A stretch of DNA of 64,000 bases, from assembly GCA_905178155.1 (NCBI GenBank), contig CAJINV010000001.1, forward strand, positions 14,219,265-14,283,264, read 5' to 3'. The notes beneath the pieces were generated by a model. It ran no database searches, was not told the origin of the DNA, and saw nothing but the letters and a program-made list of their open reading frames with translations. Every line of letters starts with the position of its first letter. Within the stretch, counting starts at the first letter, position 1. This stretch comes from Amoebophrya sp. A120 (Eukaryota > Protista > Dinoflagellata). This document shows positions 1 to 31,028 of this stretch, piece by piece. The translations under genes and the position numbers were made by a program.

Positions 1-3000
1 ATCTTCAGCACGCAACTTTCTGCCGCTGTTCCTGGCTCTCGTGCTGAAGATTAGTGATAGATCATACACACCACGAACATGAGCGTTACACCAGCATTCT
101 CCTTGCTGCAGGAATCAAGGTTGAGTGACCCAAGCCAGGAAAAAGGACGACAGATTACAGAAGTAATTTGAATTTCTGCGAGATCACACAACACAAGGAA
201 ACTGTGAAAAATTATTTTTTCAATCTTTTCATCAAGCAACGAGCGACTCTTGAAACATCAAGGGTGGGCAACATAGATAGTTAGTACTACTAGAAGAATA
301 ACGAAGCACGTGAGTTGTACATTCTGCCCGGTGTCGCAGCGTGTTGTACCAAACATTTTCCGCGGAGAAGACGACATTTACTTTCTGAATCGGGCAGGTG
401 AGGGCGTACGGTGATGGTCCCGCTATGGCAGATCCAGTAAATCGACCTGAGATGATAGGCAGCACAGGATTTCAAAAATTTTCGGAATATGACAAGGTTT
501 CTTGTTATTAATTTGGTTATTTCGCATTGGATTCAGACTGTTCCAACTCACTGTCACAGCGTCCTTGATCATGAATGAAATATCTTTTTCAATACCCTTC
601 TTCGCGGCTTCGTGTCGCTCGCGTAGGCGTTTTATGATAGTGGACAGTCCCCCTCGCCCAACTATTTTTCCGCACACATAAACGCAAAACTTCCAGCATT
701 TTTCTAGCGCTTTTCAGCAATACGACCTTGCGTGAGAGGAAATCGCATTTACAAGACTTCGCACAGTACTGTGATCCACACCAATGTCGTGCTTTGGTCT
801 GTCAACACATAAGGTTGATCTACGTGTCCTCTGATGTTGTCTCTGTTGCTCGCTCTTGGCCTTGCGCCGTATTAAACTCTACCCATTAAATATTCGAGGG
901 GATGAAGCTGAAGCAAGGGTGGGTGGAGTAGAGATGTCCACCTTGATACGCTTTACGCACCCCGTGATCGCCCCTACCGGTCCTGCTTGGTCTGGGTCGG
1001 CAGGTACGGCATTGTAGTAGGTCTCGCCCCGGCGCGGCACAAAGTAGCAACGGTTGGTGATTGGGTCCCAGAACTCGGTGTTGCCGCTCAACTGGTCCTG
1101 GCGCATCACATACATGCCGTCCCCGTCAGGAATCGCATCCACTGCCACACAAAAGCTTTTTACTTGGTGCCCAGGGTCCACCTGAAGGTTGTGTGATAGA
1201 AGGCGCGCTGTAGGAGATGTTCTTGCAACTTCTTACGATTCCACCACGTCGGTGAACCAATTGCAACGCGACATTCATCGAGAACAGAACAGCAAACTTT
1301 TTGACAAAACAGTGAGCAAAAACAGGAAAACCATTTTGAAAACGTCGAACAAGAAAATCCCTCCTATTAATACTTCCCCCCGCTTCGCGTCGATGTAGTT
1401 GAAGTAGTTGCACAAGAGTATGGCGTGCTCCTCGTAGTCCCCACACGAGATGTCCAGAAAAGTTTTGGAGGTGCACCAGAGATCCACAGCCCGGCCTTCG
1501 AACATCTGCCCGTCCGTCATGAAAGTGATCAGGGAGACGAAGCGAGCGCATTTTTCGATGGCAAAGGGGTCCATCATGTCTGCCACGATGTCCTCGGGTG
1601 GCGCTTGGGGCGTGATGAACCGCGTCACCAGCCGCGACCGGCCCTCGATGTCCGTGCCGAGAGCTTGGGCCAGGTTCTCCTTCACGATGCGATCGGAGCC
1701 TAGGGATGCCATCCACTGGTGCACGTGGTTCAATATGGCTCGGGATTCTTTTCCGGGAATGATCGGCGCATTGCCGCTCTCGGGCTCCGTCAGCACGCGG
1801 TCGAGCGTCACACTGGCAAACAGGAGCATGGGCTCCTCATTCTCTTCGCCTGTTTTTTTTTTAGTTTTTACATTGACGGCGCTAGCGCTTCCTCGTGAGC
1901 ATTGCGCTCGTGAATGACGTTATCCACGAGCGTATACTTACAGAAATATTTATAGTATCTTATCTGTTTGCTTATGCTTCGACTTTCCATGCGTCAATCC
2001 TTTATCTGCAGTTTGTCCCAGCAGAACGTTCTCCAGTGGGTTTGCGGCGTAATGTCAAAATAGGATTTTTCAATGAACCACAACCAAAGTAAGTAATGCA
2101 TAAGCATCAAATAAAGCGTATGATAAACCTTGGGTTGGATCTGGTGGCATTCCTTGTGCCATGCGCTGCTGTGCGGCAGCAGAGGGCGGTTTCTGGTAGC
2201 CGATGATTCCTACCGGCGCGTCGACGCGAAAGCGACCTTCTATTTTGCAGTTGTTTGCCAACACCGTGGGCCAAGGGAGCGCAAACGTCCCCAAATAGCG
2301 CCTCTCTCGCTTGGTGATGACCGCACCGCCCTGATTGCCATAGTTGTTGCTCGACCCGCTCATGGACAGGCTCGCCGTGCCCCCCGCTCCGGTTTGTATG
2401 CTGATCTTATTCCCTGAAAATTAAGCATCCATCCCCATCCACTTTTGCATGACAAACACAGACAAGACTTTTTTGCATGACAAATTGGATGGAGATGGTT
2501 ATTTAATTTTCAGGGAATAGATCTCCGTCTCGTCGAAAACGTTGAAATGCAGGGCGTTCGTGAACGCGTTGAGGGCGTCACCGGACAAAGATACGTTTGG
2601 GTTGAGCCCACTGGCCAGCGGGAAGACGCGGTGCTGGTTGATGTCTGGGTTCAAGCCCGGTATGCGGTACCCGGTGTCTGTTTTCAGCTCCATTTTGTCC
2701 ATGTTTTCGAAGGCAAGTTCCACGACGACCTCGGACACCGTGAGGCCCCTCTGGTTGCGCTCCAGCGCGGAGGGTATCCTCAGCGGCACGTTGTACAGCT
2801 TGGCCACGTTGATGTGGATGCCCGCGCGCTTGGAGCTGGGGTCGTGCAGCCGCTGCTGCATGGCCGGCTTCAGCGGACGCCGCGGCTTCAGGAGCGAGCT
2901 CAGTTTCTGCCACAGTGCGGCCCAGTCGATCTCCTCAGCGTCCTGCCCGTATTCGCGAACGACCGTTTTCACGGAGTACTTCCGCTTTACCGAAGACACC

Positions 3001-6000
3001 ATGCGAGTTCGCGCTTGGATCGCGGCGATGAAATCCTCTACCGCGGTCTCTTCCGCCTCGTCCTGCGAAGGCGGCTCCGCCGCCTGGGTTGTTCCGAAGG
3101 GGTCCGCAGGCGGAGCATCGCCTGTGGTTGGATAGTTCGCAACGAATTCTTAAGCGTCGGTGGCGGAAAGATAAGATCTAGTAATAAGTCGAAGTGCGCT
3201 CCTTGTATAATGTAGTTGTCCTGCTACTTAAGGTCAGATCAAAAAAGATAAACTGCAATATTTTTCAACATCTTCTGCAAAAGTCGTACTTTTCCTCGGT
3301 GTCAAGTCTTTGGGCTTGGGCGGGAGTTTGACTGCGACCGCCGTGCCGTCCTGCGCCGTGCTTGTGTCCTCGCCCGTGAGAATAGCGCGCGCGTTCGCGG
3401 AGATCTGTTGCATGCGCACCTCCTTGTCTGTGGCGGCAATCTGCTCCCCGCCCGCCGAGTGCTTCTGGGCCCGGAAGGCCAACTTGTGAAACCGGCGAGA
3501 CTGCTTCACGTTGCCCCAGTTGACGAATTTCAGGTTGCAATACAGCGACTTCAATGCCGGGTCAAAAGCGGTGGCTTCGGATTTGTGCAGCAACACGTCA
3601 AGCTCGTCGCGGCTTTGCTGTACCATGGGGTGGATCATACCGAAAAGCGCACCCATACGCATACCAGATAAAGACTGAATTTGCATATCCTTATCCATAT
3701 GCTGCGTTCATGGCGTAGTTGTGAAGATGCTGATCCGCAACAGGCAGAAAACAAGCCTGTCATGCGGATTGGAGATTGTATTTGTATTTGTAACTCCCGG
3801 ATGAAAGGGTACTTACAACTGGAGACACCGTTCGAATATTTGTGAAGCAGAAGAACAGACAAGAGCACCAGCATTTTTGTTTTAGTCTTGTCTTGTACGT
3901 GAAAAACTGCCCAAAAAATCTACTATGGGCGTTCTTTTTTGTAGGATAGGGTGGTTTGGATCGAACCGGAGGTCCTCGAGAAGTTGCTGCGTTCGCGAGA
4001 CCAGCAGACTGGAACCTCCGCCGCCAAATGCATCCGCGTTTTGAGAGTCTGTAGTTTTCATGCCTCGTTGGCGGGCAAAAGAACCAAGCGACAATTCAAG
4101 GTTGGGTGCACACCCAACTGCACACGACTCAGGAGATATTACAAAGCCTGCATCATGAAAAAATGGGTCCTTGGAGGAAAGGAAGTTAGTAAAAAATACT
4201 TACTCCGAGGGTCCTTGCCGCCTTGTTTGGAAAACCGCGAAAAAAAGGGCAAGTGGGTTCCTTCTTCAAACGCGCGGTGCAGACTTTCCATGGCCGTCGA
4301 ATCTGCCAGGGGCTGTGGCGGCAAGGCCCCGTCCTTCATCTGGTTGAGCGGCACGGGCCAGAACGTGCGCACCTTTATTACGCCGGTGGTGGTGCTTGTG
4401 TCCTCCATGGCAGACTGCAGTTCCTGCCTGGTTTGCGATTCCCGCTGGTGCGAGCGCGGGGTGCTTGCCGAGGTCCCCTCGACGTAGGTCTGGGTGGAAG
4501 TCGAGGAACGGGTCCCGGCGGCCGTAATCGCGCCGTCGGAGCCAAAAACCAGCTTCTGCCGAATGATCGGAGTGTGCGTCACCCGGGTGCCTTCCGCCGC
4601 TGGAATGGCGATCTGCACGCCACCAATTTTCGTCCACTTCCGTATTCTACCATGCGAGAAGATTCCCAGCGCGCGGGGCACTCCGACCCACACTTGCAGC
4701 TCGATGGTGCGCGGCATCGTGTGCACGCACAGATCAAACGTGTAGGGGCAGGCGGCGCGGGCGAGATCTGCGACCGCCCCGAGGTCCTGGTCTAAGATGT
4801 TACCTGGAATGAAGTGAGCGGAATCAATGGATACCTACGATGCTGCGAGGTGCGACGAATCTAAATAGCCCATTATTTCGCGGAGAGTTGCGTGCAACAT
4901 CGTGATCCATCATGATCTTGATCATCATGGAGGATGTACGTCGCGCAATATCCAAACTTCATCTGCGCTGTTTTTTGTAGATAAGTACTAAGGTTCGCGC
5001 TGGTGCTCCAGGAGTCCCACTGCACTGGCATCGCGCCGGATGTCCCGACTTGCTCTCCGTTGACCACTATCCTGTGCAAAAGTACCGCACTCGTTGTAAT
5101 TACAGTCATATATCAACATCATGCAAATGCATCGCAGATCTACCTTTCTATAAGATGTAGCATGATCATTGTGCTTTTGCTTTTGTGCTTGTGAAAATTT
5201 GTAAAAATGCAGCCATGATGTATAACTACTGCGATGCCGAAACTTTTGCACTGCATAACCACGCATGTGATCTCGACCTTCAGTACCCCACTTTGCAGCC
5301 GGCGTCGACGCTCGAACTCCTGCAGGGAGATCGGGCGGAGCTCGTCCATGTTTGTGACGCGTTCTCTCCTCCAGGAGAGCTCAAAGCGGTACGTGTCCGC
5401 CCCGGGCGGACGCCAGTTCGTTGCGTACCACTCGCGGAGCTGCTGTTCCGCCTGGCTCGGGTCAAATGGCTGCTGCTCCTGCTGCGCGAGGAATTCCAGC
5501 TCTTCGAGCTCCGCCTGCAGGTACTGCTCCACGCGTTTCTGGTCCTCTATGGGGCTCTCAAGCGTTACGTTGAGTGCTGTTGCATGTTGCTTTGTCACGC
5601 ATCAAAGTCTACCTCTACTTCGCGTGACAAGTCATTTAAGTACTTCTCTGTAACGCAAGAGGACGCACAGCAACCTTCCACCCTTCACTGTAGTTGCTAT
5701 TCCGGTGTAACAAACTCACGTAACAGGAACAGTCAACGTAACGCTTGAGTAGACTCCCATATCCTCCTCCGCATTGTGCGAAACCACCTGCGCTTCCAAC
5801 TTCACGGGCGTGCTGACAAAATTCTGCGTTTTGCGCAACGTGCGCAGCTGTTGCCACGTTTTGTACAGTGCGTCAGACACCGCGCTGCGTTCTCGTTTTA
5901 TGCATGGAGCAGATGTCTGTCTGGAAAGTCCAAGTTGTATATGCAAGTGAATTCAGTGAATGACAATGATAACAGCACTGCAAGATTAGCGATACACAGG

Positions 6001-9000
6001 CAAACCTGTCGACAGTTTTTTTATGAAGGGCCGTGAGTTAGTCCCACCGATTCCGCGTGGTCAGCTCCGTGTTTGCATGATCACAGGCAAGAGGACTTCG
6101 CGAGCCTATGGCTCAAATAGTCATATTAGACATAGGCATAGCTCAGACCGCTCATTAATATGTCAGACAAGCTCAACCTCAAGCATGCGACGTGTTGCAA
6201 TCTTCTACAGCCAGACATCTTTGCAATGCATACGCTCCACCTCCGTGCGAATGCTGCGAAATTTTTTCCTTTCCTGTACGTGCAATGCCCACCGGCGCTC
6301 CAGCGCATCCTTTTTCTTCAGCTCCGCGTCGTCCGCGGCGTCGCCTGGTCCGAGCGCATTGGATTGAGGCTGTTGCGCCTGTGCCTGTTTCAGGCTTTCC
6401 AGTAAAGTTTTGCCGTACGCCATCCAGGAAAAAAAAAACGCTACAGTAGTTCATCATACATCGTCGCTCAACAACACTTCTCGACGGCAACACAAGTCTG
6501 CCCTGCAGGACAAAAAAGCTTGTGCTTAAAGATTGATAGTGTGGAGATCTCAACAAGTGAAAACACGCACGAGACGAGACTTCGACGCTGTATTTCGGTC
6601 ATCATGGCAGAAGTTGCACTAGCACCACCTGTTGCCAACGTTTAACTAAGTGTACTAGAAGTACGACGCTAGTAGCTCCTGCACATTTTTCTTGCGATAA
6701 AGGCCACTAAGGCGTCGAACCGGCCGTCGAGAATCTCTATCGGATCTCCTTCTTCGCGGCGGCGGTACTCGTCGTATTGGTACAGGAGTCGTGCGGTGAG
6801 CCGGTCCTCCTCGGAATACAAGGTCGTCAGGATCTCCTTCGCGTTCTTCTCGCGAATGCCCAAGCCGTGCTGAAAAGAGGTAAAGGTGACCGTTTCCAAG
6901 CAGATCTTCAACGAGTACATGTGGTCGGCTTTCAACTGCATCCTTTCCGCCCGGAAGTTGTTCATCCGCTTGAACAGGGACCGCTCGTGTGAGTTCAGAA
7001 ACACTGGCATGGTTTGCCTGCTGGAAACCACTATGGATTGCAAAAATGTCTGGGTCTGGAAAGTTGGAACGTGTAATGCTGGTCTTGCATTCCTGTGAAA
7101 TCTGTATTGCATGACCAAAAACAGTGGTGGCCCCTTATTTCATACAAAAATGCAGTTTCTCATGTGGAGTTCGTATGAGAAGGCGTGCTGCAATCTTGTC
7201 ATGTTTTCCTGCATAAGGAAGTGACTTCCTCTTGCACATTTTAGCATCACAAGTTTCTAGACCCAGACATTTTTGCATTTGATAACCACCTCAAAGTCGC
7301 AAAACTGAATCAGCTGCTCCAGCTCCGCGTAGTACTGCTGCCAGGTGGGCAGCGTGCCACGCTATGGGCTGCAAGTATGTCTGGGTCGTCTCCCGGAGGA
7401 GGAGGAGCGCCAGCCTGTGTAATATCATACCCTTGCAACGCGTTGTAAGTGAAGCCAAACTCTGCTGTGCATGGAGCGGATCAGCGTCAGCACCTACATA
7501 GATTGGCATCCAAAAGCGTCACCCTTGTTCCTGTCATGCAGCTATTTTCTTTGGTAGTTAGTGGAGTTCTTTCCTCATGGAGACACTGTCTAGCGCTACA
7601 AGTTTCCTTCATCCCGGCCCAAACTTAGTTGCAGTGGATACGCGCTTGCGGGCAACGATTTTTTGGTACATGTCTTCCAGCGCGTTTCCGGATTGGGGCT
7701 GCGTCGCTCCTGGAAAAAATAGAGACTTTCATCTTCAGGTGATTTGATGATCCGCAATGGAGGCAAGAACTGTAAAGAAGTGCTCGTCCTTCCAAATGCA
7801 AAGTCATTGCTCTTGGTGCAACCACATCAGATGTAAAAATGAACGAAAATACGACTACAAAAGATTCTTGACAGCCGGAGTTGTCTGATACCATAAGCCT
7901 GCTGCTGTCTCGCAATGACGATCGGTCCTGCGCTACTGTCGCCTCCTACTTGTGGAAACTCGGATATTTGCTGGCACTTTTTGGCCAGGGCGATTTTCTC
8001 GCGCATTAGCTGCAGCAAGAGGCGCCAGTAGTTCCACGGTTCGTGCTCCCGCAAGTTCGCTCGACTGCGAAAGAGTCCGTCGTCTGCATTCAACAGTGCG
8101 CGGACAAAGTGGTCGTAGTGCCAGTCTTCGTGCAACACCAGCGGATTTGTCGTGAAGGCGTGGTGGTGCAGCGCAAGCCAGCGCACTATCCACAGTAAAC
8201 GCGGCGTACAGGTACAGTTGGGATGAACCATGCACAACAATTAAACTTTCAGACCATCAAAACCATACTCGCATGGGAATCATTGTAAGAATTCATCTGG
8301 CGCTCCTGACTAAGACTACGTAGTAGGTTTTGGACGAGTGGCAGTCAGTGGCAAAAACATCACATTCACAGTTCTAATTTTGTATCGTCATGCATGTTGT
8401 AGCTGTACTCACCTGTACGCGCAAGGAGCGCACGCATGGGAATGGGAAATTTGTATTCCATACGTGAGAGGAAGCCTTCGCTGCCTGCCAGGGCGCGGAC
8501 GCGGAGCAGAAAAGGATGCAGGGGTATCATGGACATAACTTGCTCTTCGTTTTTGGTAATCGGACTTTGCTCCAGTGTTGGATTGCGACATCTCGTAACC
8601 ACGGTTCGGTCCCCACCGGCACTGCGCGTCGCCTTCTTCGCGCCTCCGACGCGAGAGAACATCCCCGCTCCAGGGTACGGCGCAGAGGAATTGCGACCCC
8701 CATTTCGTGGAGGTGGATACGAGGCTGACATGGCAGTGTCGCCATTTGGATTGTTGTTCCCCTGTCCACCGTCCATGGTTCCGAGGCCCGGCAATTGCTG
8801 CGTTGAGCGCGGGTCTTCTTCCTTCTTGCTGGATCGCGTTACGCGGCTCACGAGACCCCCTAGGGCGGCTTTCGTGCTGTTCTGTGGTGAAATTTTGAAA
8901 CGCAGAAATTTTATTTTGGTTTTACCCTTCACCCATTGACCTCGCACATTAAGTGTACAAATATTAACGCTGAAATTGTGAGGCATGCACGAGATGATAG

Positions 9001-9768
9001 TGGATCAAACCGAAAATGTGATGGTATCCACCAGCGCAGCATGTTTATTACTGCAAGATCAGCCGCTTTTGATCCAGTGGTCTGCTGGTTGTCACCTCCA
9101 CCAGGTGGATTGTTTCCCGCGCCGAAAGCCGGTGTCTGACCCCCTTGCTGCATGCCGAACCCCCCGGGGGGGCCGGTACCGGACCCACCGAGGTTCATCC
9201 GTGGACTGGGCTGCGTGGCGGTGCTGCCAAATCCGGCTCCAGGTCCACCGAACCCGGGCGTGCTCCCCGCGAAGGAGGGTGGTATCAAAACGAAGAAAAT
9301 AAATCTCCCTTAACTTTCCTCACATTTTCTACTTCGTTCTAGTGCTGGGCATAAAATAATCAGAATTTTGCGACGCCCTCGAGATTGGCGTACACAAATC
9401 AAAATAGAAATTAGCAATTGGCTGCACCATTGAGGGATCGCAGAACTGCGCTTCTATTGATTGTGCACCAGTAATTGCTGCATACGCATCGAGAAGTTTG
9501 ACAAATCCAATATCCATGGTGGGTTTGAAAGACGTACCATTACAGATGGCCTTCAGAATGCTGCCTGCAGCTCTTGGTTTCCATATACTTATGTGCAAGA
9601 CAAGGCCGATCATTTGTGGCCACAACAAGGAAGTCGGCATGGCAAAGTTTCCCTTGGAGGATGGAGTGGGGAGATTATCTTCCTCATAATAGGCTGCTGC
9701 CCTCCGCCAAACGTGGCGGTCGAGGAGGAGGACCCCCCATACTGAAACTGGCTGGAGTTGTTATACAT
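1..9768 (-). CDS. CC2D2A: CC2D2A/MKS6-like ciliary transition-zone protein (multi-exon; 3' end probably runs off the window start)
   Basis: Exons carry CC2D2A/CEP76-type C-terminal motifs in order: HFNVFDE, ERRYLGTFALPW..IEGRFRVDAP, CARFVSLI, DLWCTSKTFLDISCGDYEEHAILLCNYF, AIPDGD.YV, EFWDP, CPIQKVNVVFSAENVWYN. A C2-like segment and coiled coils lie upstream. Exons join in frame across GT-AG introns (e.g. 1182-1373, 1850-2128) and TIR elements. The start ATG at 9768, whether the low-complexity N-terminus belongs to this gene, and several junctions are uncertain. Confidence 0.8.
2408..2519. mobile_element. TIR introner-like element, family D (112 bp), direct repeat GATCT
   Basis: GATCT|TATTCCCTGAAAATTAA...TTAATTTTCAGGGAATA|GATCT, with a perfect 17-bp inverted repeat that extends imperfectly. 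Removal with one repeat joins FDETEI to SIQTGAGGTASLSMSGSSNNY in frame. Confidence 0.92.
5068..5257. mobile_element. TIR introner-like element, family B (190 bp), direct repeat ACCAC
   Basis: ACCAC|TATCCTGTGCAAAAGT...ACTTTTGCACTGCATA|ACCAC. Removal gives KVEITCVVNGEQVG in frame. Confidence 0.9.
5548..5761. mobile_element. TIR introner-like element (214 bp), direct repeat TCCTC
   Basis: TCCTC|TATGGGG..CTCAAGCGTTACGTTGA...TCAACGTAACGCTTGAG..CCCATA|TCCTC, with a perfect 17-bp inverted core. Removal gives NAEEDQKRVEQYL. Confidence 0.92.
5899..6232. mobile_element. Degenerate TIR element, family A (334 bp), imperfect repeat CGTTT/CGCTC
   Basis: Left end TATGCATGGAGCAGATGTCTG versus reverse complement of right end TATGCATTGCAAAGATGTCTG. 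Removal gives RTEV(E/K)RERSAVSDALY. Confidence 0.8.
6421..6699. mobile_element. Strongly decayed TIR element (CAT...ATA ends, repeat TACGC/AAGGC)
   Basis: Weak inverted repeat ATCCAGGAAAAA versus ATCGCAAGAAAAA. Removing element plus 5 bp joins FDALVA to (Y/F)GKTLLESL in frame. Confidence 0.5.
7032..7284. mobile_element. TIR introner-like element, family A (253 bp), direct repeat ACCAC
   Basis: About 31-bp TIR, TATGGATTGCAAAAATGTCTGGGTCTGGAAA...TTTCTAGACCCAGACATTTTTGCATTTGATA. Removal gives QFCDFEVVSSRQTMP. Confidence 0.93.
7363..7640. mobile_element. Degenerate TIR element, family A (278 bp), repeat CACGC/CGCGC
   Basis: Left TATGGGCTGCAAGTATGTCTGGGTCG versus right reverse complement TATCCACTGCAACTAAGTTTGGGCCG. 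Removal gives MYQKIVARKRGTLPTWQQYY. Confidence 0.8.
9283..9691. mobile_element. Degenerate TIR element (409 bp), repeat GGTGG/GGCTG
   Basis: Left TATCAAAACGAAGAAAATAAATCTCCC versus right reverse complement TATTATGAGGAAGATAATCTCCC. Removal joins two Gly-rich exons in frame (GGGQQPSFAGSTPG). Confidence 0.65.
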
Positions 9769-10762
9769 GACACGGCGGGGTAGAAGACGGGCAGAAGCCA
9801 CGGCCTAGTCAAGCCTTCGGAGGCAAAGTAGAACGAACCGAATGAAGCCGAAGCTCCGAGCGCAGGAGCAGGACCATCTTGCGTTCACAAACTTCTGTAG
9901 TACTGCACTTAACTAATGACGGAGTAGAGTTGTTAGAGTGCTGCCAGCAGCTGCCTGCAAGACGTATGAATCATAAGAGGTTGTTGATGTAGTTCATCTG
10001 GACTGTTGTATCGGTATGGACACACACGCCTTGGCTTTTTTTCTTTGTAAGTTATACAGTCATTCGCATTCCCTCGACTACAAGTCGCGCATCTTGCTGC
10101 GCTCCGCTCTCAACGTAGTTTTCATCTAGATACTCATACACTCATCCGGCGTGGTGACCTTTAGCTTCAAGAAAGATACACTCACACAACTCCAACCGGA
10201 TTTCATGTACACTACCTACGATGATCCCGTCAGCGTTGCCGGAGTGACTTTTCTCCTGGAACAGGTGGCAGCGCTGACACCAAGGGCGCGCCCATGCTTT
10301 GATCTCGACAACTCCACGTGTGTGCCTTCGTGCTGTCGCTATTGGGTTATGGTGCCTTTCCATTTATTTGCTTCGAAGATGAAACTTTTTGATTTTGTGC
10401 CGCGATAGTTCGCTCTCCAACAACGGACCACATTTTATTGATATGTTTCCAAAAAAATTCTACATCAAAAACATTATTTGTAAAGAAGCAGCCACGTCGT
10501 CGAACAAGTGGTCTTGAAGAGCACACTCGTCAAGCACACCTCTTTTTCATATCTTACAAAAAATAATCATGCTATCTAACTCAAATAGCCTGCAGCGTTC
10601 TTTGCATTTATGGAAATTGCGTTTGTTCGTGTACTTAGTGGAGCGATCTGCCTAGGAAAGGAACCACGCAGTCTAGCAGCAAGCAGGATTTTTGGGATGA
10701 AAAAAAATTGGAACCACGTATATCGTAAGTAGATGTTGTTATCGATTCGGATATATTGCACC

Positions 10763-13642
10763 TCATGCTTCTACTTTTGACGGCAGCGCGCCCTCCACAC
10801 CGTCGCACGACGCTTCGACAGTAGAAGATGCCCCTTTCAGCAGCGTTTTCCAGACGTTGCGCTTGGCAATTTCCTGTGCCTTGTTGCGGAGATAGACGCG
10901 GAAATGGAACAGCAGGTACCCCAACGCGGACAACAACACGACGCGGCGGCGCTGGTCGCGCGAGCGGGTGGCGAAGACAGCGAGAAAAGCAAAAAACGCG
11001 GCCGCTTTCTGGCCGTGGCCGGCAAAGTATGACAGTGTACAACCTGCTCCCCTCCCCGTTTTTATTTGCCACTGCCAGGCTGATGAGCAGCAGCAATAGA
11101 TGCAAGGCCACCACAGAGGCCTCCGCATGACAAACCCGCACACAGCTTGTCGTGCGTTTTTTTTGGTGTTCAAAAATTGTCATGGATGTTAACATGATGT
11201 TGATGCTTCAAGCAAGGCAAGAAGTGGATTTGTTGTTTTCCGTAACAAATGCGGGAAAGGGACAGGGAGAGTTCGTAGTTGTGCACTCGCATACAAAGTA
11301 CCGCTTGGTCAGCTCGGCGTCCGCCAACCGCTTCGTGATCTCGTATCAAACTAAAAGGCGCACAGACTCCAGAAACCTCAGTGAATGTTTCTACGTGCGA
11401 AGCAATCTTCTCTAGCTCTGTGGAGCCATTTGCCACCGTGCCTGCATACGTAACACAAGTTTTTGTTTTCGGGGACCAAAACCAATGCATAGCGAAGAAA
11501 ATAATGCCCTAACAACTATATAAACATGAAAGAGAAGAAGTCGAAGTTCAAGTTACTACTTCGCAATACAAACTACACTTAGAAATTCTTTCTAAGAGTG
11601 TTGCACTTTTCATTTGATATCTCGTCCTGCTGCTTCTTGCAGACCTCGCCCCAGACCTGCACCGCTACACGCTGGGACTCCCACTTCTCCTGAGAATGGT
11701 AAACAAACAGTGCATGAGTTTGAGAAGTCATGCTCATGAGTCATGTACACTGTTTCACTTGCCATTGCTAAGAAGAAACCAAACATGCAACGTGAAATAG
11801 TACTACACCAGTACTTCTTGAGATTAAAAATGTACTACTCAACTTCGGCAAAGATGACAGCTCGAACAGTACGTGAAGATCTCTTGTCACTACTATTCGT
11901 TATTGATACCTGCACAAAAACCCGGTTGCTTTCCCATTTCTCCTGCAGGTACTTCTTGACCACTTCCGCGCGACACTTTTCGCGCACCGTCCGATAGAAG
12001 GCCTCCACGTCCAATCGCTTGGAGAGCAACTTGCAAAACTGGTCGTGCATTCGCGTTACCCGGTTCTCTCGCGCCACCACGACTGCTGCGTAACTCTTCG
12101 CGACCGTCTGCGCCACCTGCGGGCTGTCACGGAACATCGCCATCCAGTTCCTGTTAGTTGTACGTGGCATATGGAAATAAGTTGTAGCCAGCAACTTCAA
12201 CAGGTTCAAAAATTAAATCAGAATCAGGATTGCTCTCGTACGCATGATACTGTTTGAGTTTGTGTCAAGAATCTGTTTCTGTATCTCCTTCGAAAAGCTG
12301 TAGACGGTTTGTTGCTTAAGGTTCATCGTCGACAAGAGCGAATTAAGCTATTCCCCCACCTAAATGTCGAATCCGCTGCTGCTCGTGGTTCCGAGACGCA
12401 TTCCTTTACGAACTTCTCGTGCGCATTGTCGACAACGGCGCTGGAGTATGAGAGGGCACAACCCTGCGCGCCGCTCATTTGGCATGCAAAATGCCAAAAC
12501 TTCCCCTTTGCCTTCTGGTTCTGGCGCTGTCTACTGCATGACAAATTTCGCAACGAGAAACGAGACAACTTCTGGTCTGTCGTGACAAGTTACTTGTCTA
12601 TCACGCACAGCCCCCACCTTCGCGGGTGCTTCTGTTGCTGCTCACCAGGCCTCTCAAGTGAGCGGGGGGGGCAGTCGTTGTGCACTCTGATATGGGAGGA
12701 GCTTCCGATGTGGCGAGGTAGGCACCGGTGACGGCGTCCACGTCCTCGGCAGTGTGCATCATCTCATCTGGCGATGAATTGTTTCCCGCCACAACTGGCG
12801 AAGTGGTCTGTTCCGCCTGCTGTACGTCGTTGTACGGGTGACTGGCCTATCAACTGTAAAAATGTCTGGGTCTGGAAGAATTCATGTTTGTCATGCTTGT
12901 CTGGCATGACTCTAAAATCTTCCATGCACGTTACCCAAGAGCTCCGTTTTTCTGTGATGCAGAGCTGCAGTTTGTCATGCAGAATAGGCAACACCTAGGA
13001 GCTCAGAAACTTGTCATGCTGAGCCAGTATTCGTAGCCTCATCATGAGACGCCACCCAGCATCACAAGTTTCCAGACCCAGACATTTTTACTTTTGATAT
13101 GGCCACATTTGGGTAGATCGGAACGAGTTTCTGGCTCTCCATTATAACGCGCTCAGCTGTTACAATCTCAAACGTTACAATAGAATATGGTGATCTGTGA
13201 TGCAAGAGTGCATGACCTAGCCTACTCCCACAGGATTGCGCATGACAAGTTCTGGAGGCCAAATCCGCACTAGAATCTGGCGAAATTTGTATTGCGAAAG
13301 GTGGAACGCTGTGCGAGTCTGTCATGCTCATCATGCAACACAAATTCCAGATTCTATTGTAACGTTTGAGATTGTAACACCTGAACAGGTTATATCCATG
13401 CGGTCTTGCTTCTTAGTGGCATCAAATTTCGCGTCGCTCACACCGCCAGCTGAATATACACCGAAACAAGTGGTGGACTCCGTCACAGGTGTCTCAACTG
13501 GCGTGACTAGGGGCGTGGAGGAATTAGAATCACTGTAGCCCTGCTCTTTGGAGGTAGTAGTTCCGGCGTGAGCTGCTGGCTTTGGGGCGCCTTTGCTGGA
13601 ACCCTTGTTGTTCCCTTTGTTGTTTCTCTTCACTTTTGCCAT
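10763..13642 (-). CDS. Uncharacterised multi-exon protein with C-terminal hydrophobic segments
   Basis: About eight exons join in frame from MAKVKRNNKG (ATG 13642) across four clear TIR elements, two GT-AG introns and one unresolved intron, ending AAAFFAFLAVF...VVLLSALGYLLF. No family recognised; the 3' end is uncertain. Confidence 0.65.
11028..11293. mobile_element. TIR introner-like element, family C (266 bp), direct repeat CAAAG
   Basis: CAAAG|TATGACAGTGTACAAC...GTTGTGCACTCGCATA|CAAAG. Removal gives AELTKRYFAGHGQK. Confidence 0.88.
11344..11619. mobile_element. TIR introner-like element (276 bp), direct repeat TCTCG
   Basis: TCTCG|TATCAAACTAAAAGGCGCA...TGCACTTTTCATTTGATA|TCTCG. Removal gives KKQQDEITKRLAD. 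Confidence 0.88.
12848..13099. mobile_element. TIR introner-like element, family A (252 bp), direct repeat TGGCC
   Basis: 30-bp TIR TATCAACTGTAAAAATGTCTGGGTCTGGAA...TTCCAGACCCAGACATTTTTACTTTTGATA, with ends close to those of 7032-7284. Removal gives YPNVASHPYND. Confidence 0.93.
13143..13394. mobile_element. TIR introner-like element (252 bp), direct repeat TCCAT
   Basis: About 45-bp TIR with a perfect 29-bp core TGTTACAATCTCAAACGTTACAATAGAAT. Removal gives KKQDRMESQKLVP. Confidence 0.94.
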
Positions 13643-14277
13643 TTTGGATCAGGCTTGCTCGTACAAGTCTGCTTAGTGTCTCCGTGTACGTGGCACTTTC
13701 ACTTATTTTATTGCCCTTGCGATAATAAAAGAACTTCGATGTACTGACGTTCTGGAGATGGCACTGGCAGTCCGTAGGACTTATTGCAATTGGATGCAGA
13801 GTTGCTACAACGACCGCAGTTATTCGTCTTCGTCTTCCCCGCCCGAGTTTGTACTTCTGTTTCTGTAAGTATCTGTATCTATGAGGAATGGTTACTTTCA
13901 TCTAGTGAGGAAGAGGAAGCAGATCAGCGGCCACGACATCGATGATCTTACAGACCCCATGCTGACGACTACTTGGATCAGACACTTCTTCCGCGGATGT
14001 TCTAGTACCCCCGCTGGCTTTGTTTCGAAACGCGGCCGGTTGATGAACTTGCTTATTCTCCACAACTACGCACGAGTAGCCCCGACGACAATCAAACAGA
14101 CCGAAGATGACATAATTAAGAAACGCACCCACGGTAATGATCTTTATCGTTGTCTTTCTTTTGACCGAGAAAACGGCACGAACCTGTGGACGAACTGCCC
14201 AAGGCCAAGGGATCAATCATTACTCGTGGCGAGATTTGTTTCGCAGTTGGAAGTTGTAAAAGCACGCCCGTGTAATT

Positions 14278-16188
14278 TTACTTTTCATTTGTCTCAACTT
14301 TATTTGTCGTTCTTGCGGACGCGGCATTTTCTTTCTCAAACATATCCCGATCCACGTCAATAATCCATATCCTGGGCCTCGCAAGAAACATATTCGCGGC
14401 ATTAATTTTCAAACAACTTATATCATCACCGATTTTCACTAGACTACATCCGCGCTTATGATGTCGATGGCCAACGAGGTGGATTTTTGGTTTAGTTCTC
14501 GATAGAAATTTGTTGAACTTTCCCCCAAGATTCCAGCAATGGGTCATGAGGATGTCAACGTTCTCGTTACGTGAGTCAGATCTTGTTCCGTGTGCCCCCA
14601 CACTACCCGGTATACTGGGCGCAGCCTCGATTCCTGCTGTTGTACTATCCTGCTCGTCCTTTTTATTTAGAAACTCATTCTCATTCCAGCTTTCTGGGTC
14701 TTGGCCCACCCGATTGAAACTGGTTCCCAGATTCGCTTCTGCGCCGTAGATTTCGACGATGGTCGCCGGCTTGGCGCCGGAGGCGTTTCGTAGTGGTGCC
14801 TGCCGTTCTTGACCGTGCACCGGAACCGAAGTGGAGACAAAAGACAACAACGGAAGAAACTGGAGATGCTCGTCGCTTTTGCCAAAACTGTCGGATTGGG
14901 ATTGTCTCGTTTTCTGCTTGCCGGCGCCCGTCAGCTGCGTCGCTAGAACATCGTCGTGATTTCCACCAATGTATCATGTGCAAAACAAGTATCGTACTCG
15001 TACCGTAGTAATCGCAGTCATGCATTACAAATTTCTCTCTCAAGAAAGTCAAATCCGCATTACAAATTTCATTTCTCACGCTGAGGGAATTTGTAATGCG
15101 TTTATACGAGTACGTCGATACTTTTGCACAGGATATAATGGCGAACTTGTACCCGACCGGGAGGCTAAACCACCATTCCTGGAGTGCCGTGGCTTTTTCC
15201 TCACAAATTCTCGCTTGCAGCTCGTCGCTGCCATCCGCGTAGAGCCTCGAGTCGTAGAAGAAATCGCCACAATGCAGGAGGAGATCGATGTCTTTGTCCT
15301 GCGGAATCTCCGGAAAGTGTTCATGCGTGTCGGATACCACACAGATACGGACTTTCCCCTGCTGTTTTGGTCCCAGAAAATGCACCGACCGAAGGTGACG
15401 CGGGTAGATTGGAAGCGACTCTAGATTTTTCTGTTGACCGCCGCCATGTGCACTTTCCACATCTTGGCCTAGCGGGAGATCAGTACCTGGGAACGAGCCA
15501 ACGGGTGCGGTGCTGTGCGACAGAAAGTACGTGAGCCAACTTTCAAGCTGCGCTTGCAGAAAGAGCTTTACTGAATGCTTGAAAGAAGTGTAGTTGGTGG
15601 TGAGGCCGCTAAACGAGCAATTGTTGTTCGTGGGATCGTCCTTTGTTCCGGATGCTGGTGCAGTCGCAGTGAGTGAAAAGTCGACGTAATCAACTTCCGT
15701 TCGGCACCAGGCGCCGAAAGTCAAGCGTTGCAATTTGAACCAAGCGGGTCGGATATACTCCAGATACTGATGAAGTCCGAGTTGCCGCAAACAGAATGGC
15801 TGCGATAAATCGAGAAGGCGGTTGTCGAGCCTGTGATACAATCATAGATTTTTGACCATATGGTCGAAGACCAAGTTGACACAAAACGGTGCTGCCAGCA
15901 GCATTAGTACAGCAACGGTCAATACGGTGTATGATATGACCTTTCCGTGATCTTTTTAGCAAGGAAGCTCTTTTACTTGTTCTCGAGGATGAAGAAAAAG
16001 CAAACAAACAAAGGATGTTACAGAAACGGCACGACGCTGTGACAGAGATGGTAGAACGGAAATGCAACAGGATTGTAAGGACTAAAGACGGCATAGTGCC
16101 ACCAGAACTGCCACGATCGCAAGTCCGGCGCGCCCGCGGGAAAACCGACTAACCACCTCCAGAAACCATCTTCGATCGGAGACCTCAT
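14278..16188 (-). CDS. Calcineurin-like metallophosphoesterase (MPPED1/2-like), 3 exons
   Basis: Motifs VVSDTH, LHCGDF, GNHD, ILMTH, GHRH and INAA occur in order. GNHD comes into frame only after removing element 14972-15135. A GT-AG intron near 15833-16020 joins an N-terminal exon. Confidence 0.88.
14972..15135. mobile_element. TIR introner-like element, family B (164 bp), repeat CAATG/TAATG
   Basis: Left TATCATGTGCAAAA versus right reverse complement TATCCTGTGCAAAA. Removal restores FAI(G/S)GNHD. Confidence 0.9.
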
Positions 16189-16814
16189 TTGTCCGCAGCA
16201 GAGCTTCGTGAGAAACAAAGAACCGATTCTTTTTTTTCATATAGCTGGCCTAGATGACCTTCTTCTTGACAACTTTAACGCTGACCTCTACATTGTGTCT
16301 GGCCCCGAATTGCTCTTTACGTCGTATTATACACATATCGATCAAAAGTGAATGTAGTGGTTGTGAAGGGATGGGATCGCGATGAAGATCGTCGCTCTGA
16401 TTACAGGCGACACGAAGTACTTAGATATCAGATGCCGATGCGTGAACCGAAGATGAAAAAACAACAAACTCGATATATTGTGCAGCGTGAGCAAATGCAA
16501 AGCAATTTCAACGGCAATCATGAATTAACAAGCTGCATCAGCAATGTGAGTATCAAGTTTTTGTGACGCCATGAACATTGGGATTGGCCTTTCTTCAAGT
16601 TTCATGTGGCACAACAAAGTACTCCTCCTGGGTCTTCCACGACCTAGCTTTGTTTCTACTTTCTTATATGTCGCTGCACCTGCAGGAACACTGTCACGGT
16701 CGGTTGCTTGTGGTCTTTGTTGCCTCGAAACGTTCTTTCGCTCGTGAAATCGATGAGGCCAAAATTGTTGATCAGGAGGGGAGGGAGCTATAGAGATCAT
16801 CTTCCAGTTTTTTG

Positions 16815-17957
16815 TTACACTTGATTTCCCATCTGCGACGTGCCACCTCCGCCCCCGCTGTCGCTGTTTCCAAAAACAGGTCGGTCATCTGCGAACTCGA
16901 CGTAGCTGCTCGCGGAGCTAGATTCGAGGTGCTGTTTATACTTGTTCATTGCGAAGTAGCTTCCCGCGCCCACGAGCACTAGCATGAATGTGACCGTCCA
17001 GTAAGAGTCTGAGAACAACACATAAGCCACGGCGTCGATAAACAGTAGCGCGCAGAGAAAGTAGAGAAAATACTGTCGAAGCATCATTTTTTGCTGCAGC
17101 TGCCTCGAAGATTGGCTAAACTGGCCGGCAGTGCTGTTGAGAGTTGCGGACTTGTTGTCCAGGCCCCGCCACTATCCGGGCCAAACATGCCGGGCGTGTT
17201 TGGAAAGTTTATTAGACTTCTCATTGTACTACACCTGCTCTCGCATACTTCATCAATTCCCTGTGATGCGTGTTCCGGAACACCACCACCAGCGCTGCAT
17301 CTTTATGCTGCACAGACGAGACCACTTATCATGCGGGTTATGCACTACAGAACCGATGAAAAGCTTTCCATGCGTAGCTACATGCTGTCACTGCAGTCAG
17401 GTGAAGGAGAACGTATAGTACTCCTACTCGCTCATGTGTAAGCATCACAACACTTTCCAGACACAGACATGTTTGCAATTGGTAGCAACTGGCCATCGCG
17501 GGCTACCATCTGCTGCTATCCCGAGTAAAAACGTCCGCGCCCCCCAAACAATTTGCCATGCAAATCTGTATGCCAAAGCCGAAATTGTGTATCTGCGTAC
17601 ACTTATTCATTGCGTCTCATCATGCGCAACTCCATGCTCGAATCACATATCTAAATCAGGATGCCAAAAATCGACCTGTGAAGCGACTGCACTAGAGACC
17701 CAACGCTGTCATGCACCTGTTTGCGTTTAAGTTTATTGAGTTTGTGTAGCAAATCTGCGATCTCAATTCTGGGGACGAGGGGACGTCGTGTTTGCGCAGG
17801 ATAGCTGCATAGACTGCTTTAGTGTATCCGTCGCCGTTTGCACCTGGCCGCGAGTCTGCTCCAAAGAGACCATCCTCGAAGGACCGCTGCTGGTATTTAG
17901 ATCGTCGGCGGTGCTGCCGATGCTACTTCCGCCCGGTGCCGTTGACGATGCCGACAT
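16815..17957 (-). CDS. R-SNARE, synaptobrevin/VAMP family, 3 exons
   Basis: Spliced sequence LEQTRGQVQTATDTLKQSMQQMVARDGQLRGLDNKSATLNSTAGQFSQSSRQLQQKM fits the synaptobrevin coil with its zero-layer Arg, and is followed by hydrophobic membrane segments. Confidence 0.88.
17173..17484. mobile_element. Degenerate TIR element, family A (312 bp), repeat GCCAC/GCAAC
   Basis: Right end AGCATCACAACACTTTCCAGACACAGACATGTTTGCAATTGGTA matches family A but ends GTA. Left end is TATCCGGGCCAAACATG..GTGTTTGGAAAGT. It lies inside the SNARE motif. Confidence 0.82.
17517..17803. mobile_element. TIR introner-like element (287 bp), direct repeat GCTGC
   Basis: GCTGC|TATCCCGAGTAAAAACGTCC...GGACGTCGTGTTTGCGCAGGATA|GCTGC. 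Removal gives KQSMQQMVARDG. Confidence 0.85.
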
Positions 17958-27389: not shown

Positions 27390-28731
27390 CTTGATGCTGC
27401 TGAGTCAACGAGAACGAGGACAGCGACAGCTCTCTTTGTATATTTCTAGTGCATGTTGATCATGCGCGGAGCCTTGCGCTACACGTAGTACACTTAAAGA
27501 AGGAGGCTTGTACTCCTTGCTTTCCAAAAGAGTTCTTTTGCTTCCGGTTTCACGGGCTCCCGATGTATACGTTGCAGTTTTAGGTGGTCCTTTATTGATA
27601 GATCTTGACACAATCACATAGCGATGACGCGAACTAGCAGTAGCAACCCACGACCTCGATTTGAATTATACCACGAACGACTTCAACAATGTGGATTACG
27701 ATACGAAGACGAGGAGTGAGGATGCAATGATGAAAGTGTGGAGGAGCTGTGCTGCGAGCGTTTCACCACAGACACAGTGAGGAGCTGCTCCTGCTCCACA
27801 GATGATCTAATAAGACGATGCGGACAAACATTGCATGAATATGACGAAGATCATGACGATTGGCACGGGAGATATCCCCTCCTCCACAGACATTTCACGA
27901 CCATCTTTATCGATCAATGCATTTTCTACATGATTCTTGTTTTTTTATTCACGCGACCTCTACCAAGAAGAGAACGCCCCTTCAACGAACTGCTAATCTT
28001 TATGAGACGAACGCAGAACATCTTCAGCATATCCTAAAGTTCATATTGATATTGTATTTCAATACCACAACTCGACGACCCAAAAACGGTTCTTCTTCTT
28101 TTATCATGTGCACAGCACAACCACTCTCACTCACGCGATGGAGTGTATGAAGCGTTGTCTCAGTTTGCTCAGGGAGGTACATTTCAAATCAACAGGAGTT
28201 CTTGCGTGGTCGGCTTTTGCGTTTTCGTTTATTCGCCTACAAATCAATCCTCGCAAGGACATCAAAAATTGTCAAATATTTAATCGTAAACAGCGACATC
28301 AATACAGGATTCATTTGAGAAGTTCATCGGGCAGTAGGAAGCGAATTCAGGGCGTTCTTACCTTGTGGTTGTACAGGTGATCTTCACAGTGTCAAAGTTG
28401 GTATTGTAGTTGGAAGCGTACGAGGGCGTCGTTAGCTACTTACAACTGGGCGGACGAAGGGAGCGGGACCGGATAAAACAAACGAAGTGCTGGATCAAGA
28501 TGAACGCTGCAGAACGTGGTACAAAATTCCGCGCTGCTGGTGTAGTGGCTGTCGAGCAATCCTATTTCTGGAACTTCAAGAGTGGGTGTTGGAATTTCAG
28601 AAATAGATGTGGTGGAGGCGCCGGTCGAAAACGATGCACGACACTAACACTAATCGGAGGACGTCCTGTCGTGTTCGTTCAAGCACAACAAAAAGTTTGT
28701 TTATTCCTATCGAGCAGCCGCATTTTTAGCG

Positions 28732-31028
28732 TTACATTCCCAGCTTCGCTTTTAGCGCCCTGTTTTCCGTTTCCAACTCGGCTATTCTTGCGTGCGCCTG
28801 CGCCAGCTCCTCCTTGTACTCCCGTATTCCCTTGGGTTTTGCAGCGGCGCTCCCGTTGGACGCAGACGCGAATACGCCGCTGCCGTCCGTGCGGCTCTCG
28901 CGGTTCATGCTCATGCGCGTCCGCGGCTTCTTCGCGCCGCCCTCCCACTCGTCGGCAGTGAGCGAGGCGATGGGCGCGAGGGTGTCGGGGTACAGGTCCG
29001 ACTGGAAGGCCTCCGATTTTCGCGGCACGACGAAGGAGATATAACAGTGCACAACTCCCCCTCGCCCTCATTTGTCATGCAAATTACCCAATCCACGTCC
29101 ACCCTTTTTCTCTTGGCACTGTTTGCATGACAAGTTTTGGTACCCCAAATAGCACTACACTCCAGTGCAAATTTGTTAAGCAAAACCGGCACTGTTGCTG
29201 ATGCTTGTATTGCTGTTCATGCTATACAAATGAGGGGGGGGGAGTTGTGCACTGTCATAGGAGATCGCCTGCACCGCCCCGGACTCGCATTTCACCCCGC
29301 GCATGATCTCCTTCTTCGCGGTGTCCACGGCGTACTTGGGGAGGAAATCGAACCCCTTCTGGGGCGTGGTGGACCGGTAGTCGGACACGTAGTGGAAAAA
29401 GGGCGCCTCCTCCACCATTTCGAAGTACTTCACGTTGCCGTCGCCCTTGCCTGCCAGGTACAGCATCCGCGTGTCCGCGTCGTAGAAGGGGAAAAGCGCG
29501 CCCGTTCCCTGATCCAGGGGCAGGAGGTGCAGGGGCTCCGACCCGGCGGGCTCCGCGGTGAAGTTGCGCAAGTCCCACACGCAAACCTGCCTCTCCGCCA
29601 TACTGCTGAAACCGGTCGTAAGTACTCGGTCTGTTTATTTGATTTTGTTGTAGGTCGAAGATGATGAACAATTTGCGCTCATGCAAACGAATTTTTGTAC
29701 TTCTACTTTTAAAATAGCGATTGCGATGCAACTGCGGAGCTATGTAAAAGAAGCCTAGAACGACGATCGCAGCGACCAGGAAAGCGAAACCACATAGACA
29801 TGTCGTAACAGAAGTGGCTAGCTCGCGAAATTGCCAAAATTGATGGAACAGACTCCAGATGAGTTTTCTTTTCTATCTAGTATGAAGATCTGAAAAATCA
29901 TAAAAAAGAATGTTTTCTGCTCCTTCCTACTCACCTGTTCGATGGTTATGTCCGTCCAGCCAGAGTGTTTTCATGCTCTTGACTCCTTCGTGCGCCCGTG
30001 TGAGTGCCACCACCCCTTTCTTCACCCTCGGATCGATTATGTGGACGAATTTGTCCTTGCAGCAAACCGTCAGGAGGTCGCCATCGTGATTCCACCTGAT
30101 GTGCTGTAGTAGGTCCGTAAAGGGCACCTCAAGCACGGCGTCTTGGGTCTCCGTGTTCAATATTCTTACGACATGGTCGTAAGCGCCCGTGGCTACTATC
30201 CCGTTGGCGGCCGGATTGTGGTGCAGAAGACTTACCTGTGCTTTTGGTGTTGCTTGTGGCACTCGAAGTTTGCTGGCTTTGTGGACGTGCTTGTCCCCAT
30301 TAGCCTCTCTGATTCAGCAGCACGTCTAGCATATCGTGGTCGAGACGATACAAAAAGATCACACAGAAACCTTACTGGACGTAAGGGCGCGGACAAAAAA
30401 GAAAATCATGCTTTCTCTTTCATTTCATTATCGACATGTACCTTCTTTGGGTGTGGTATTTCGCACACACTTTGCTTCAAGTTTTCCTTTAGGCCTCCGT
30501 CTGGAATTTGGAATATCCTAAAGTGACAGTCTTCACTGACAGACGCGATCATGTTTTCGTCGAAGGGATTGAACTCGAAATCGAGTACCTATGGAAGGTG
30601 TGCTTTTTCTGACCATCAAGAACTGAGTACTTTTCCTAACGAAGTGAATGCGATGAAGTAGTGCTGCAGCCAAGTAAGTTAAAACAGTTGCTGCAAGAAC
30701 CATGGCCGACTTATGATGTTATGGAATAAATAAACAAGTAAAAATCCTGCTTCTTCTTCTAGGCGTGGAGAAAAAAAGTTGCACGTACCCCGCCCTGGTG
30801 TCCGGAAATGACCGGTATGCTTGGTGGCATTCTCCCTTGTTGTTTCCAGTCGAGTAGACATATGTTGCCTCCGCCGCCGGTACCCCATGGTATGGCGACA
30901 AACTGGCTGTTTGCCTTCACGCCGGAGGACTCCGATACCTTTGTCGCCGGCCTCAAATCTTCCCATTTTGCCTTCCAGGGGTCGCCCCACACGTGGCGAA
31001 AGCTACTCTGCCGGACGATGTTTGCCAT
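28732..31028 (-). CDS. Coronin (WD40 actin-binding protein), 5 exons
   Basis: [80 protein letters not shown] and a C-terminal coiled coil. Three GT-AG introns plus one TIR element. Confidence 0.96.
29040..29259. mobile_element. TIR introner-like element, family C (220 bp), direct repeat GGAGA
   Basis: GGAGA|TATAACAGTGCACAACTCCCCC...GGGGGAGTTGTGCACTGTCATA|GGAGA. Removal restores coronin [10 protein letters not shown]. Confidence 0.95.

Follow-up and report, generated by a model that had tools for sequence, protein, structure and literature searches.

We confirm that the coronin gene of Amoebophrya sp. A120 contains, besides introns of the GT-AG kind, a genuine intron that lacks canonical ends yet is excised precisely. 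One cut position, N|NTAT…ATANNNN|, is probably fixed for the A120 elements of this type. Our best reading is fixed-register removal by a relaxed U2-type spliceosome that would measure from short motifs, to which we give a probability of about 0.5. The existence of the coronin intron itself will not surprise specialists: its class is already published for this organism (Farhat et al. 2021, PMC7789003), and the annotated protein omits the insert. What we did not find in print is the removal of the element with exactly five further nucleotides even where the flanking repeats match at only 2/5 positions, and the single register.

The gene lies at 28732..31028 on the minus strand of the window, the whole 64,000-nucleotide stretch of A120 DNA analysed, to which all coordinates refer; unless stated otherwise, features are on this strand. 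It encodes 453 amino acids, from an ATG at 31028 to a stop at 28732, in five exons (31028-30789, 30588-30442, 30235-29935, 29630-29261 and 29035-28732). The product gives Pfam matches to DUF1899, WD40 and WD40_4 and aligns with other coronins. It equals the A120 database protein from residue 15 of that record on, the record starting 14 codons upstream of ATG 31028 and already lacking the insert; an exon of the locus is 100% identical to it. Three introns are GT-AG: 30589..30788 (200 nt), 30236..30441 (206 nt) and 29631..29934 (304 nt). The fourth, placed at 29036..29260 by the register inferred from other elements, measures 225 nt, reads C-TAT…ATA-TCTC and splits a segment conserved among coronins; if it is retained, translation stops after 380 of the 453 residues.

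Within this intron sits a 220-nt, high-copy element resembling introners and MITEs (29040..29259, TAT…ATA), flanked by a TCTCC target-site duplication with its 5' copy at 29260..29264 and its 3' copy at 29035..29039, so that the sense strand reads TCTCC|TAT…ATA|TCTCC. Its terminal inverted repeat has 22-nt arms that are 95% complementary. The 5' arm (29238..29259) contains intron positions U+2 and A+3, and the 3' arm (29040..29061) contains A-7 (29042), an adenosine that may serve as branch point or anchor. The predicted fold of the region has -119.7 kcal/mol (z -7.4), a value that none of 200 shuffles equalled. Further inside lie a GTCATGC motif common to element families (29125..29131) and its inverse copy GCATGAC (29074..29080).

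Removal from RNA is seen in an assembled contig of 2,679 nt from run X4, which differs from the coronin locus in no other letter and skips 225 nt at the joint 29033→29259, with 7 ambiguous letters. This is one contig of one run; we worked with assembled contigs throughout and guessed the run types (X4 and X3 RNA-like, X8 DNA-like), X3 and X4 being two samples of one study, while the contigs of a further run, X5, cover only 28324-28902 at this locus and a raw-read run, X11, yielded no reads there. The same X4 contig also lacks the three GT-AG introns, whose joints bear out their assignment in the first-pass annotation. At the insert it shows no canonical junction, and its lack of differences from the locus means that it does not come from a diverged paralogue. 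The contig overshoots 31200 by 537 nt and 28300 by 176 nt, through long untranslated regions or overlap with neighbouring transcripts. Ambiguous letters also occur at GT-AG ends: 5 in all three coronin introns, 4 and 3 in two others.

A joint of this kind might have an origin other than splicing: DNA lacking the insertion (an insertion-free allele, a retrocopy or programmed excision), editing to canonical ends, or an assembly artefact at the hairpin. Where short direct repeats flank a hairpin, reverse transcriptase can jump across it, and the guessed run types and the use of contigs alone leave such origins some room. We consider them very improbable. No contig of DNA-like run X8 carries the coronin joint; at either edge of the insert, X8 contig pieces continue out of the exon and into the element. 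The summed X8 depth is 35,000-72,000 within the element vs 27-28 in its flanks, and because of this excess and of relatives in the same family we judge the element to be repeated in the genome. The joint contig is free of the GT-AG introns as well and identical to the locus, skipping at repeats cannot yield an exact excess of five nucleotides where the repeats match at 2/5, and retention would truncate a conserved protein. Finally, more than 60% of A120 introns are reported as non-canonical with RNA-seq support, and editing is reported at 2-4% of boundaries, in the account of PMC7789003 at hand.

Eight equivalent registers, from 29258-29034 to 29265-29041, give the same coronin mRNA; the corresponding ends are AT-CT, TA-CC, CT-TC, CC-CT, TC-TC, CT-AT, TC-TA and AT-AT. 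None of the eight has GT-AG, GC-AG, GA-AG or AT-AC ends, as the first-pass annotation had held for GT, GC and AG boundaries, so the intron falls outside the U2-type GT/GC…AG class. The ambiguous span is 7 nt (ATCTCCT), a small correction to this annotation, which had argued from the repeat. A ninth 225-nt deletion, synonymous and with the ends GA-TA, also gives the annotated protein. Around each end, to a distance of about 60 nt, every in-frame alternative of the GT/GC/GA-AG or AT-AC kind alters the protein near the junction, in line with the earlier view that only the exact deletion restores it. U12 introns have AT-AC or GT-AG ends and a 5' consensus RTATCCT; the coronin intron would start CTATGAC and has no AT-AC register, and so does not qualify as U12-type.

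The published account of A120 introners (PMC7789003) describes inverted repeats of 8-20 nt starting with TAT and direct repeats of 3-5 nt. The coronin insert shares with them the TAT-start inverted repeat, a 5-nt direct repeat, a length of about 240 nt, repetition in the genome, RNA support and a place among GT-AG introns of one gene; as an RNA-supported, repeated, non-GT-AG insert with an inverted and a direct repeat, it belongs to the class. That account also gives a consensus of TAT, 7 nt and AAA, as a description of family motifs rather than a definition; the family of the coronin element has TAT with CACAA at positions 11-15. Across the window, A stands at positions 11, 12 and 13 in 13, 19 and 13 of 20 elements. 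With arms matching at 14/22 or more and repeats of at least 4 nt required, ten window elements run TAT…ATA, all with a 5-nt repeat, compared with none in each of 5 shuffles. Our final list holds 21 elements; a relaxed scan returned mostly noise and was excluded from the counts. The coronin element is about 70% identical to the elements at 12447 and 35822.

Where the two flanking repeats are identical, the cut cannot be placed. We therefore define the register r as the number of intron bases ahead of TAT, readable only where the two repeats differ, and set a mismatched-repeat test beforehand on the X4 and X3 contigs over 5770-17950. At least 12 element joints are listed besides that of coronin, 11 of them in both runs. 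Of the 15 rows listed we used 12 element rows and 2 GT-AG rows, leaving out 12913→13059, which lies inside an element (side 25) and is likely to stem from other copies. In all 13 element joints listed, coronin included, the RNA had lost the element plus exactly 5 nt, and this was so even with repeats matching at 2/5 or 3/5.

Seven elements inform on the register. The tightest upper bound comes from 7363..7640 (flanks GCGCG/GCGTG), whose joint 7357→7641, found in X4 and X3, gives r 0-1. A degenerate element ending in ATG, 6421..6699 (GCCTT/GCGTA), gives r 1-2 from the joint 6416→6701, found in X3 only, and the annotated protein P0122 reads ALVAYG at its junction. For 14972..15135 (CATTA/CATTG), in a metallophosphoesterase gene, we predicted before looking that r of at least 1 would give FAIGGNHD and r=0 FAISGNHD; annotated protein P0121 has FAIGGNHD, which sets r>=1 from a protein rather than an RNA joint, and the aligner could have favoured the AT-AC register there. 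Wider limits come from 5899..6232 (GAGCG/AAACG; r 0-2), 8187..8462 (degenerate, TCACG/GTGCG, a 2/5 match with exact removal of 5 extra nucleotides; r 0-2), 12447..12692 (coronin family, TCCCA/CTCCA; r 0-3) and 17173..17484 (starting TAC, GTTGC/GTGGC; r 0-2).

The only register compatible with all seven is r=1. Under independent random registers a common one would arise with a probability of 0.03, a figure whose bounds rest on one or two elements each: r<=1 on 7363, r>=1 on the 6421 contig and P0121. With r=1, the coronin intron would be CT…TC. The legend of Fig. 3 in PMC7789003 uses the words 'variable' and 'unknown' for where the cut lies with respect to the hairpin, whereas one register here is compatible with all joints. 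It is unlikely, in our judgement, that the removed length is exact while the register varies by element, set by repeat-aligned exon ends or by the nearest GT/GC/AG-like pair. That legend, the small number of informative elements, the dependence of the tight bounds on 7363 and 6421, and the GC-AG and GA-AG pairs open to elements 12848 and 5548 speak for such variation. Against it, one register fits 7/7, repeats matching at 2/5 or 3/5 still lose exactly 5 extra nucleotides, which makes pairing between them unneeded, and the position-specific conservation on the transcribed strand described below implies a fixed reading frame. The pairs at GGCCA (12848, register 4) and GAGGA (5548, register 2), singled out in the first-pass annotation, are indeed the only G-starting near-canonical options among the 21 window elements, and 14972 adds an AT-AC option that it had passed over; the first two are probably irrelevant, since register 1 alone fits all informative joints.

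As possible further support for register 1 we considered Table S4 of PMC7789003, as far as available, in which 9/9 top A120 classes start N-T and 9/9 A25 classes start TT; we dropped it, as 7/9 A120 classes differ by at most a single base from GT-AG or from GT-AG reversed, which a pull of the aligner could account for. Exons of 27, 38 and 44 nt between neighbouring elements (17485-17511, 13100-13137 and 11294-11337) are joined exactly. The 12848 element (12689-13095) reaches summed depths of 368 and 964 in two RNA-like runs, levels that its exons do not approach. The family's RNA is abundant, from other copies or from retained or excised introns. Under r=1 some families (14972-15135, 17517-17803, 3633-3948) start NTATCCT, which resembles the U12 5' consensus, although the minor spliceosome is reported to be missing from this organism.

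An arm-pattern search of metagenomes returned 70 stretches, 69 of them on contigs sharing one accession prefix, an assembly that we call related from shared element families (71-91% identity) and its fit to the window codon model. These stretches, 315 kb in all, hold about 310 elements with 5-nt repeats (318 vs 15 in shuffles), about 60 of them copies of the coronin family. Of 66 repeat pairs, 35 are perfect at 5 nt and 23 match at 4/5; some of the remaining 8 are mis-paired element ends. Taking out the element plus 5 nt leaves 145 of 154 junctions in coding-like frames, compared with 49-59 for +3, +4, +6 and +7, a count inflated by selecting loci on their score after +5 removal. Coronin-family copies lie in frames in both orientations, 15 with and 10 against the coronin element and 2 unclear. 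The 34 mismatched-repeat junctions contain no stop codon under any register, so they do not separate registers. At r=1, the intron phase in loci L001-L069 is 0 in 66, 1 in 23 and 2 in 38 (n=127). In repeats with a mismatch at positions 1-2, A/T mostly stands in the 5' copy and G/C in the 3' copy.

The ends of these elements are conserved unequally. Counted inwards on the predicted sense strand of 152 unique elements, exceptions to the terminal triplet number 0, 2 and 6 in the 5' arm vs 6, 7 and 1 in the 3' arm (Fisher p 0.002, with post hoc grouping, one assembly, predicted strands and a strand-blind scan); a strict subset (n=100) gives 0, 0 and 4 vs 3, 5 and 1 (p 0.007). The two exceptions at 5' position 2 look like false calls, and A-7 has 1 exception in 152. 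From this asymmetry, the transcribed strand retains U+2, A+3 and A-7 but tolerates C in place of U+4 and variation at U-6 and A-5. The exceptional ends in the window (ATG at 6421, ATC at 3633, TAC at 17173) point in the same direction. Against a U12-type reading, 70 of 136 elements have G at position 4 and 59 have C. The +1 base is unconstrained (G 45, A 41, T 38, C 31; n=155), and any GY-AG register is open to only 9/155.

We propose the following course. A non-autonomous DNA transposon would almost certainly have inserted and duplicated 5 bp of exon, to judge by anatomy and copy number. Element and 5 nt would then leave the RNA exactly, with the pre-insertion frame restored, as in the 13/13 joints listed from assembled contigs. 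The cut would probably be fixed at N|NUAY…AUANNNN|, so that the intron takes one base ahead of TAT and four beyond ATA. At even odds, a spliceosome freed of its G+1 and AG requirements would read U+2/A+3 as the 5' site and take A-7 for its branch or ruler; because the ends are symmetric, elements could be spliced in either orientation. The kept U+2/A+3 correspond to the UA in GUA 5' sites, and A-7 resembles a branch-type A.

The relaxed spliceosome is placed first because of these kept bases, a near-complete spliceosome and a precedent in Fritillaria. PMC7789003 reports 83/89 spliceosomal proteins in A120, plus U2, U4, U5 and U6; as far as that source was available, U1 was not found, U11, U12, U4atac and U6atac are given as absent, and U2AF65, U2AF35 and PRP8 are listed as single-copy. 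The introns of Fritillaria borealis are likewise transposon-derived, with inverted repeats and target duplications, and are attributed to a modified U2 spliceosome (PMC13326754, PMC11282704). They differ in preferring AG-AC and AG-AT ends, whereas +1, -1 and -2 are free in A120-type elements, and Fritillaria keeps U1 and has duplicated U2AF, so that the A120 inventory, as reported, counts against a spliceosome of that kind.

Other observations weigh in the same direction. Spliceosomes are described as using the first-last base pair (PMC13326754), and in A120-type elements +1 is free, GY-AG registers are few, there is no drift to GT-AG and +1/-1 coupling in the related assembly is not clear (p 0.07). 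Mutated repeats have not moved towards G at +1 (0 G in 4 cases) or at -1. With elements in both orientations, neither a strand-specific branch consensus nor a pyrimidine tract was found, and the contigs contained no lariats or intermediates. In addition, the signals would lie in a predicted stem of about -100 kcal/mol that must open.

Between a second removal mechanism and a relaxed spliceosome the first-pass annotation had made no choice. The main rival, which we hold at somewhat less than even odds, dispenses with the spliceosome: modelled on proposals for Euglena and diplonemid introns, it would have an endonuclease measure the hairpin and cut its base in a staggered way, leaving 1 nt 5' and 4 nt 3', before an RNA ligase joined the exons. 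Junction bases are free, both orientations occur and the cut follows the element ends whatever the flanks, all as such a route would have it; the missing drift to GT-AG, the unfound U1 and the single-copy U2AF keep it close. In Euglena nonconventional introns the cuts lie 3 nt upstream and 5-6 nt downstream of a paired motif, and the spacer lengths are strict (PMC12501133), a geometry that the A120 cut parallels; excised Euglena introns are reported as circles (PMC11282704), and RNase III or tRNA-type routes have been proposed for such introns (PMC12621601). These three sources, as far as consulted, describe in Euglena and diplonemids the same absence of GT-AG ends, paired ends, direct repeats, GT-AG introns alongside, and cuts at a set spacing from a paired motif at the ends, the 3' spacer being the longer one. 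The Euglena motif is N3-CDG…CHG-N5/6 followed by a purine, whereas the probable A120 pattern is N1-UAY…AUA-N4 and then any base, and the lineages are unrelated. The first exon base after the intron is a purine in 9 of 13 elements, where the Euglena rule requires one. Applied to CAG/CTG in the coronin element, that rule predicted 218-219 nt instead of the 225 nt of the contig, and we rejected it.

Several results run against cutting and ligation. A ruler made of duplex would predict symmetric conservation, and we found it asymmetric. It would also predict tolerance of G·U, yet G·U and A·C pairs are balanced (8 v 11 and 13 v 14 in the window, 78 v 80 in the related assembly). The ends of 6421 and 8187, poorly paired in the predicted fold, are still cut exactly. 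The suggestion in the first-pass annotation that the hairpin guides removal is thus only partly supported: the cut is tied to the element ends, but the lack of a G·U-over-A·C bias in the arms and these two elements speak against guidance by pairing. The tRNA-type bulge-helix-bulge consists of a 4-bp exon-intron helix between two 3-nt bulges; in 13 elements only 0-3 of the 4 pairs could form, never 4/4. Among the RNA-run joints listed none goes backwards, as a circle would, and libraries of this type would miss circles.

With the relaxed spliceosome preferred, we tentatively suggest, at slightly less than an even chance, that a hidden splice code, N|N-U-A-Y … A-U-A-N-N-N-N|N, is fixed for introns of the A120 type, with G+1 and the 3' AG abandoned and the 3' cut seven bases past a conserved A supplied by the transposon end. 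If this is true, any TAT…ATA element with a 5-bp duplication would be a perfect intron in either orientation and at any site. That would account for the spread of the elements through the whole genome, and no looser end requirement of a spliceosome would have been described. A candidate splice code would make the removal mechanism of about two-thirds of A120 introns testable. From a fixed register with three strand-specific conserved bases one would expect either branching at A-7 or a circle whose sequence is defined; it also predicts which mutations block splicing, and so separates the spliceosome from cut-and-ligate models. The register rule would let gene finders restore frames in related uncultured parasites.

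As DNA, the coronin-type elements have the make-up of MITEs: they are short, non-coding and of high copy number, with terminal inverted repeats and a constant target duplication. They differ from MITEs in being neutralised by exact removal from RNA. An autonomous partner was not found: the sole credible long copy, a 931-nt member of the coronin family (L067:3001-3931), ends in ATC, is flanked by a perfect 5-nt repeat, carries some 700 nt of additional sequence that is richer in GC, and has no ORF above 130 aa. No transposase family was matched in 14 window ORFs (Pfam), and an Rfam search gave 0 matches. In A120, introners with integrase-like ORFs have been reported, as far as PMC12130899 was consulted.

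A near-palindromic motif, TTTGCATGACAAA, occurs inside unrelated element families. GCATGAC has 20 of its 26 window matches within elements, which cover 7.7% of the window, and is present in 111 of 136 related-assembly elements without strand bias (134 vs 122). Because of this lack of bias, TTTGCATGACAAA is more likely a DNA-level binding site for a mobilising protein than a splice signal. The GCATGAC motif, the strand-asymmetric conservation and the two orientations are findings of this work that the consulted part of the Farhat account does not contain.

The listed elements are unevenly spread, 18 of 21 in 633-17803 and 3 in 17804-64000, where long uninterrupted ORFs dominate; this second part was scanned without RNA joints, and degenerate elements there may be missed. 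Twelve other long window frames gave no Pfam match. On the minus strand, a frame of 1409 aa at 18715-22941 matches aldo/keto reductase and DUF6817, and one at 23928-25124 matches DUF1826. P0122 (1-9200, minus strand; 1859 aa, with CEP76-like C-terminal domains) is interrupted within the window by 10 hairpin elements and 9 GT-AG introns.
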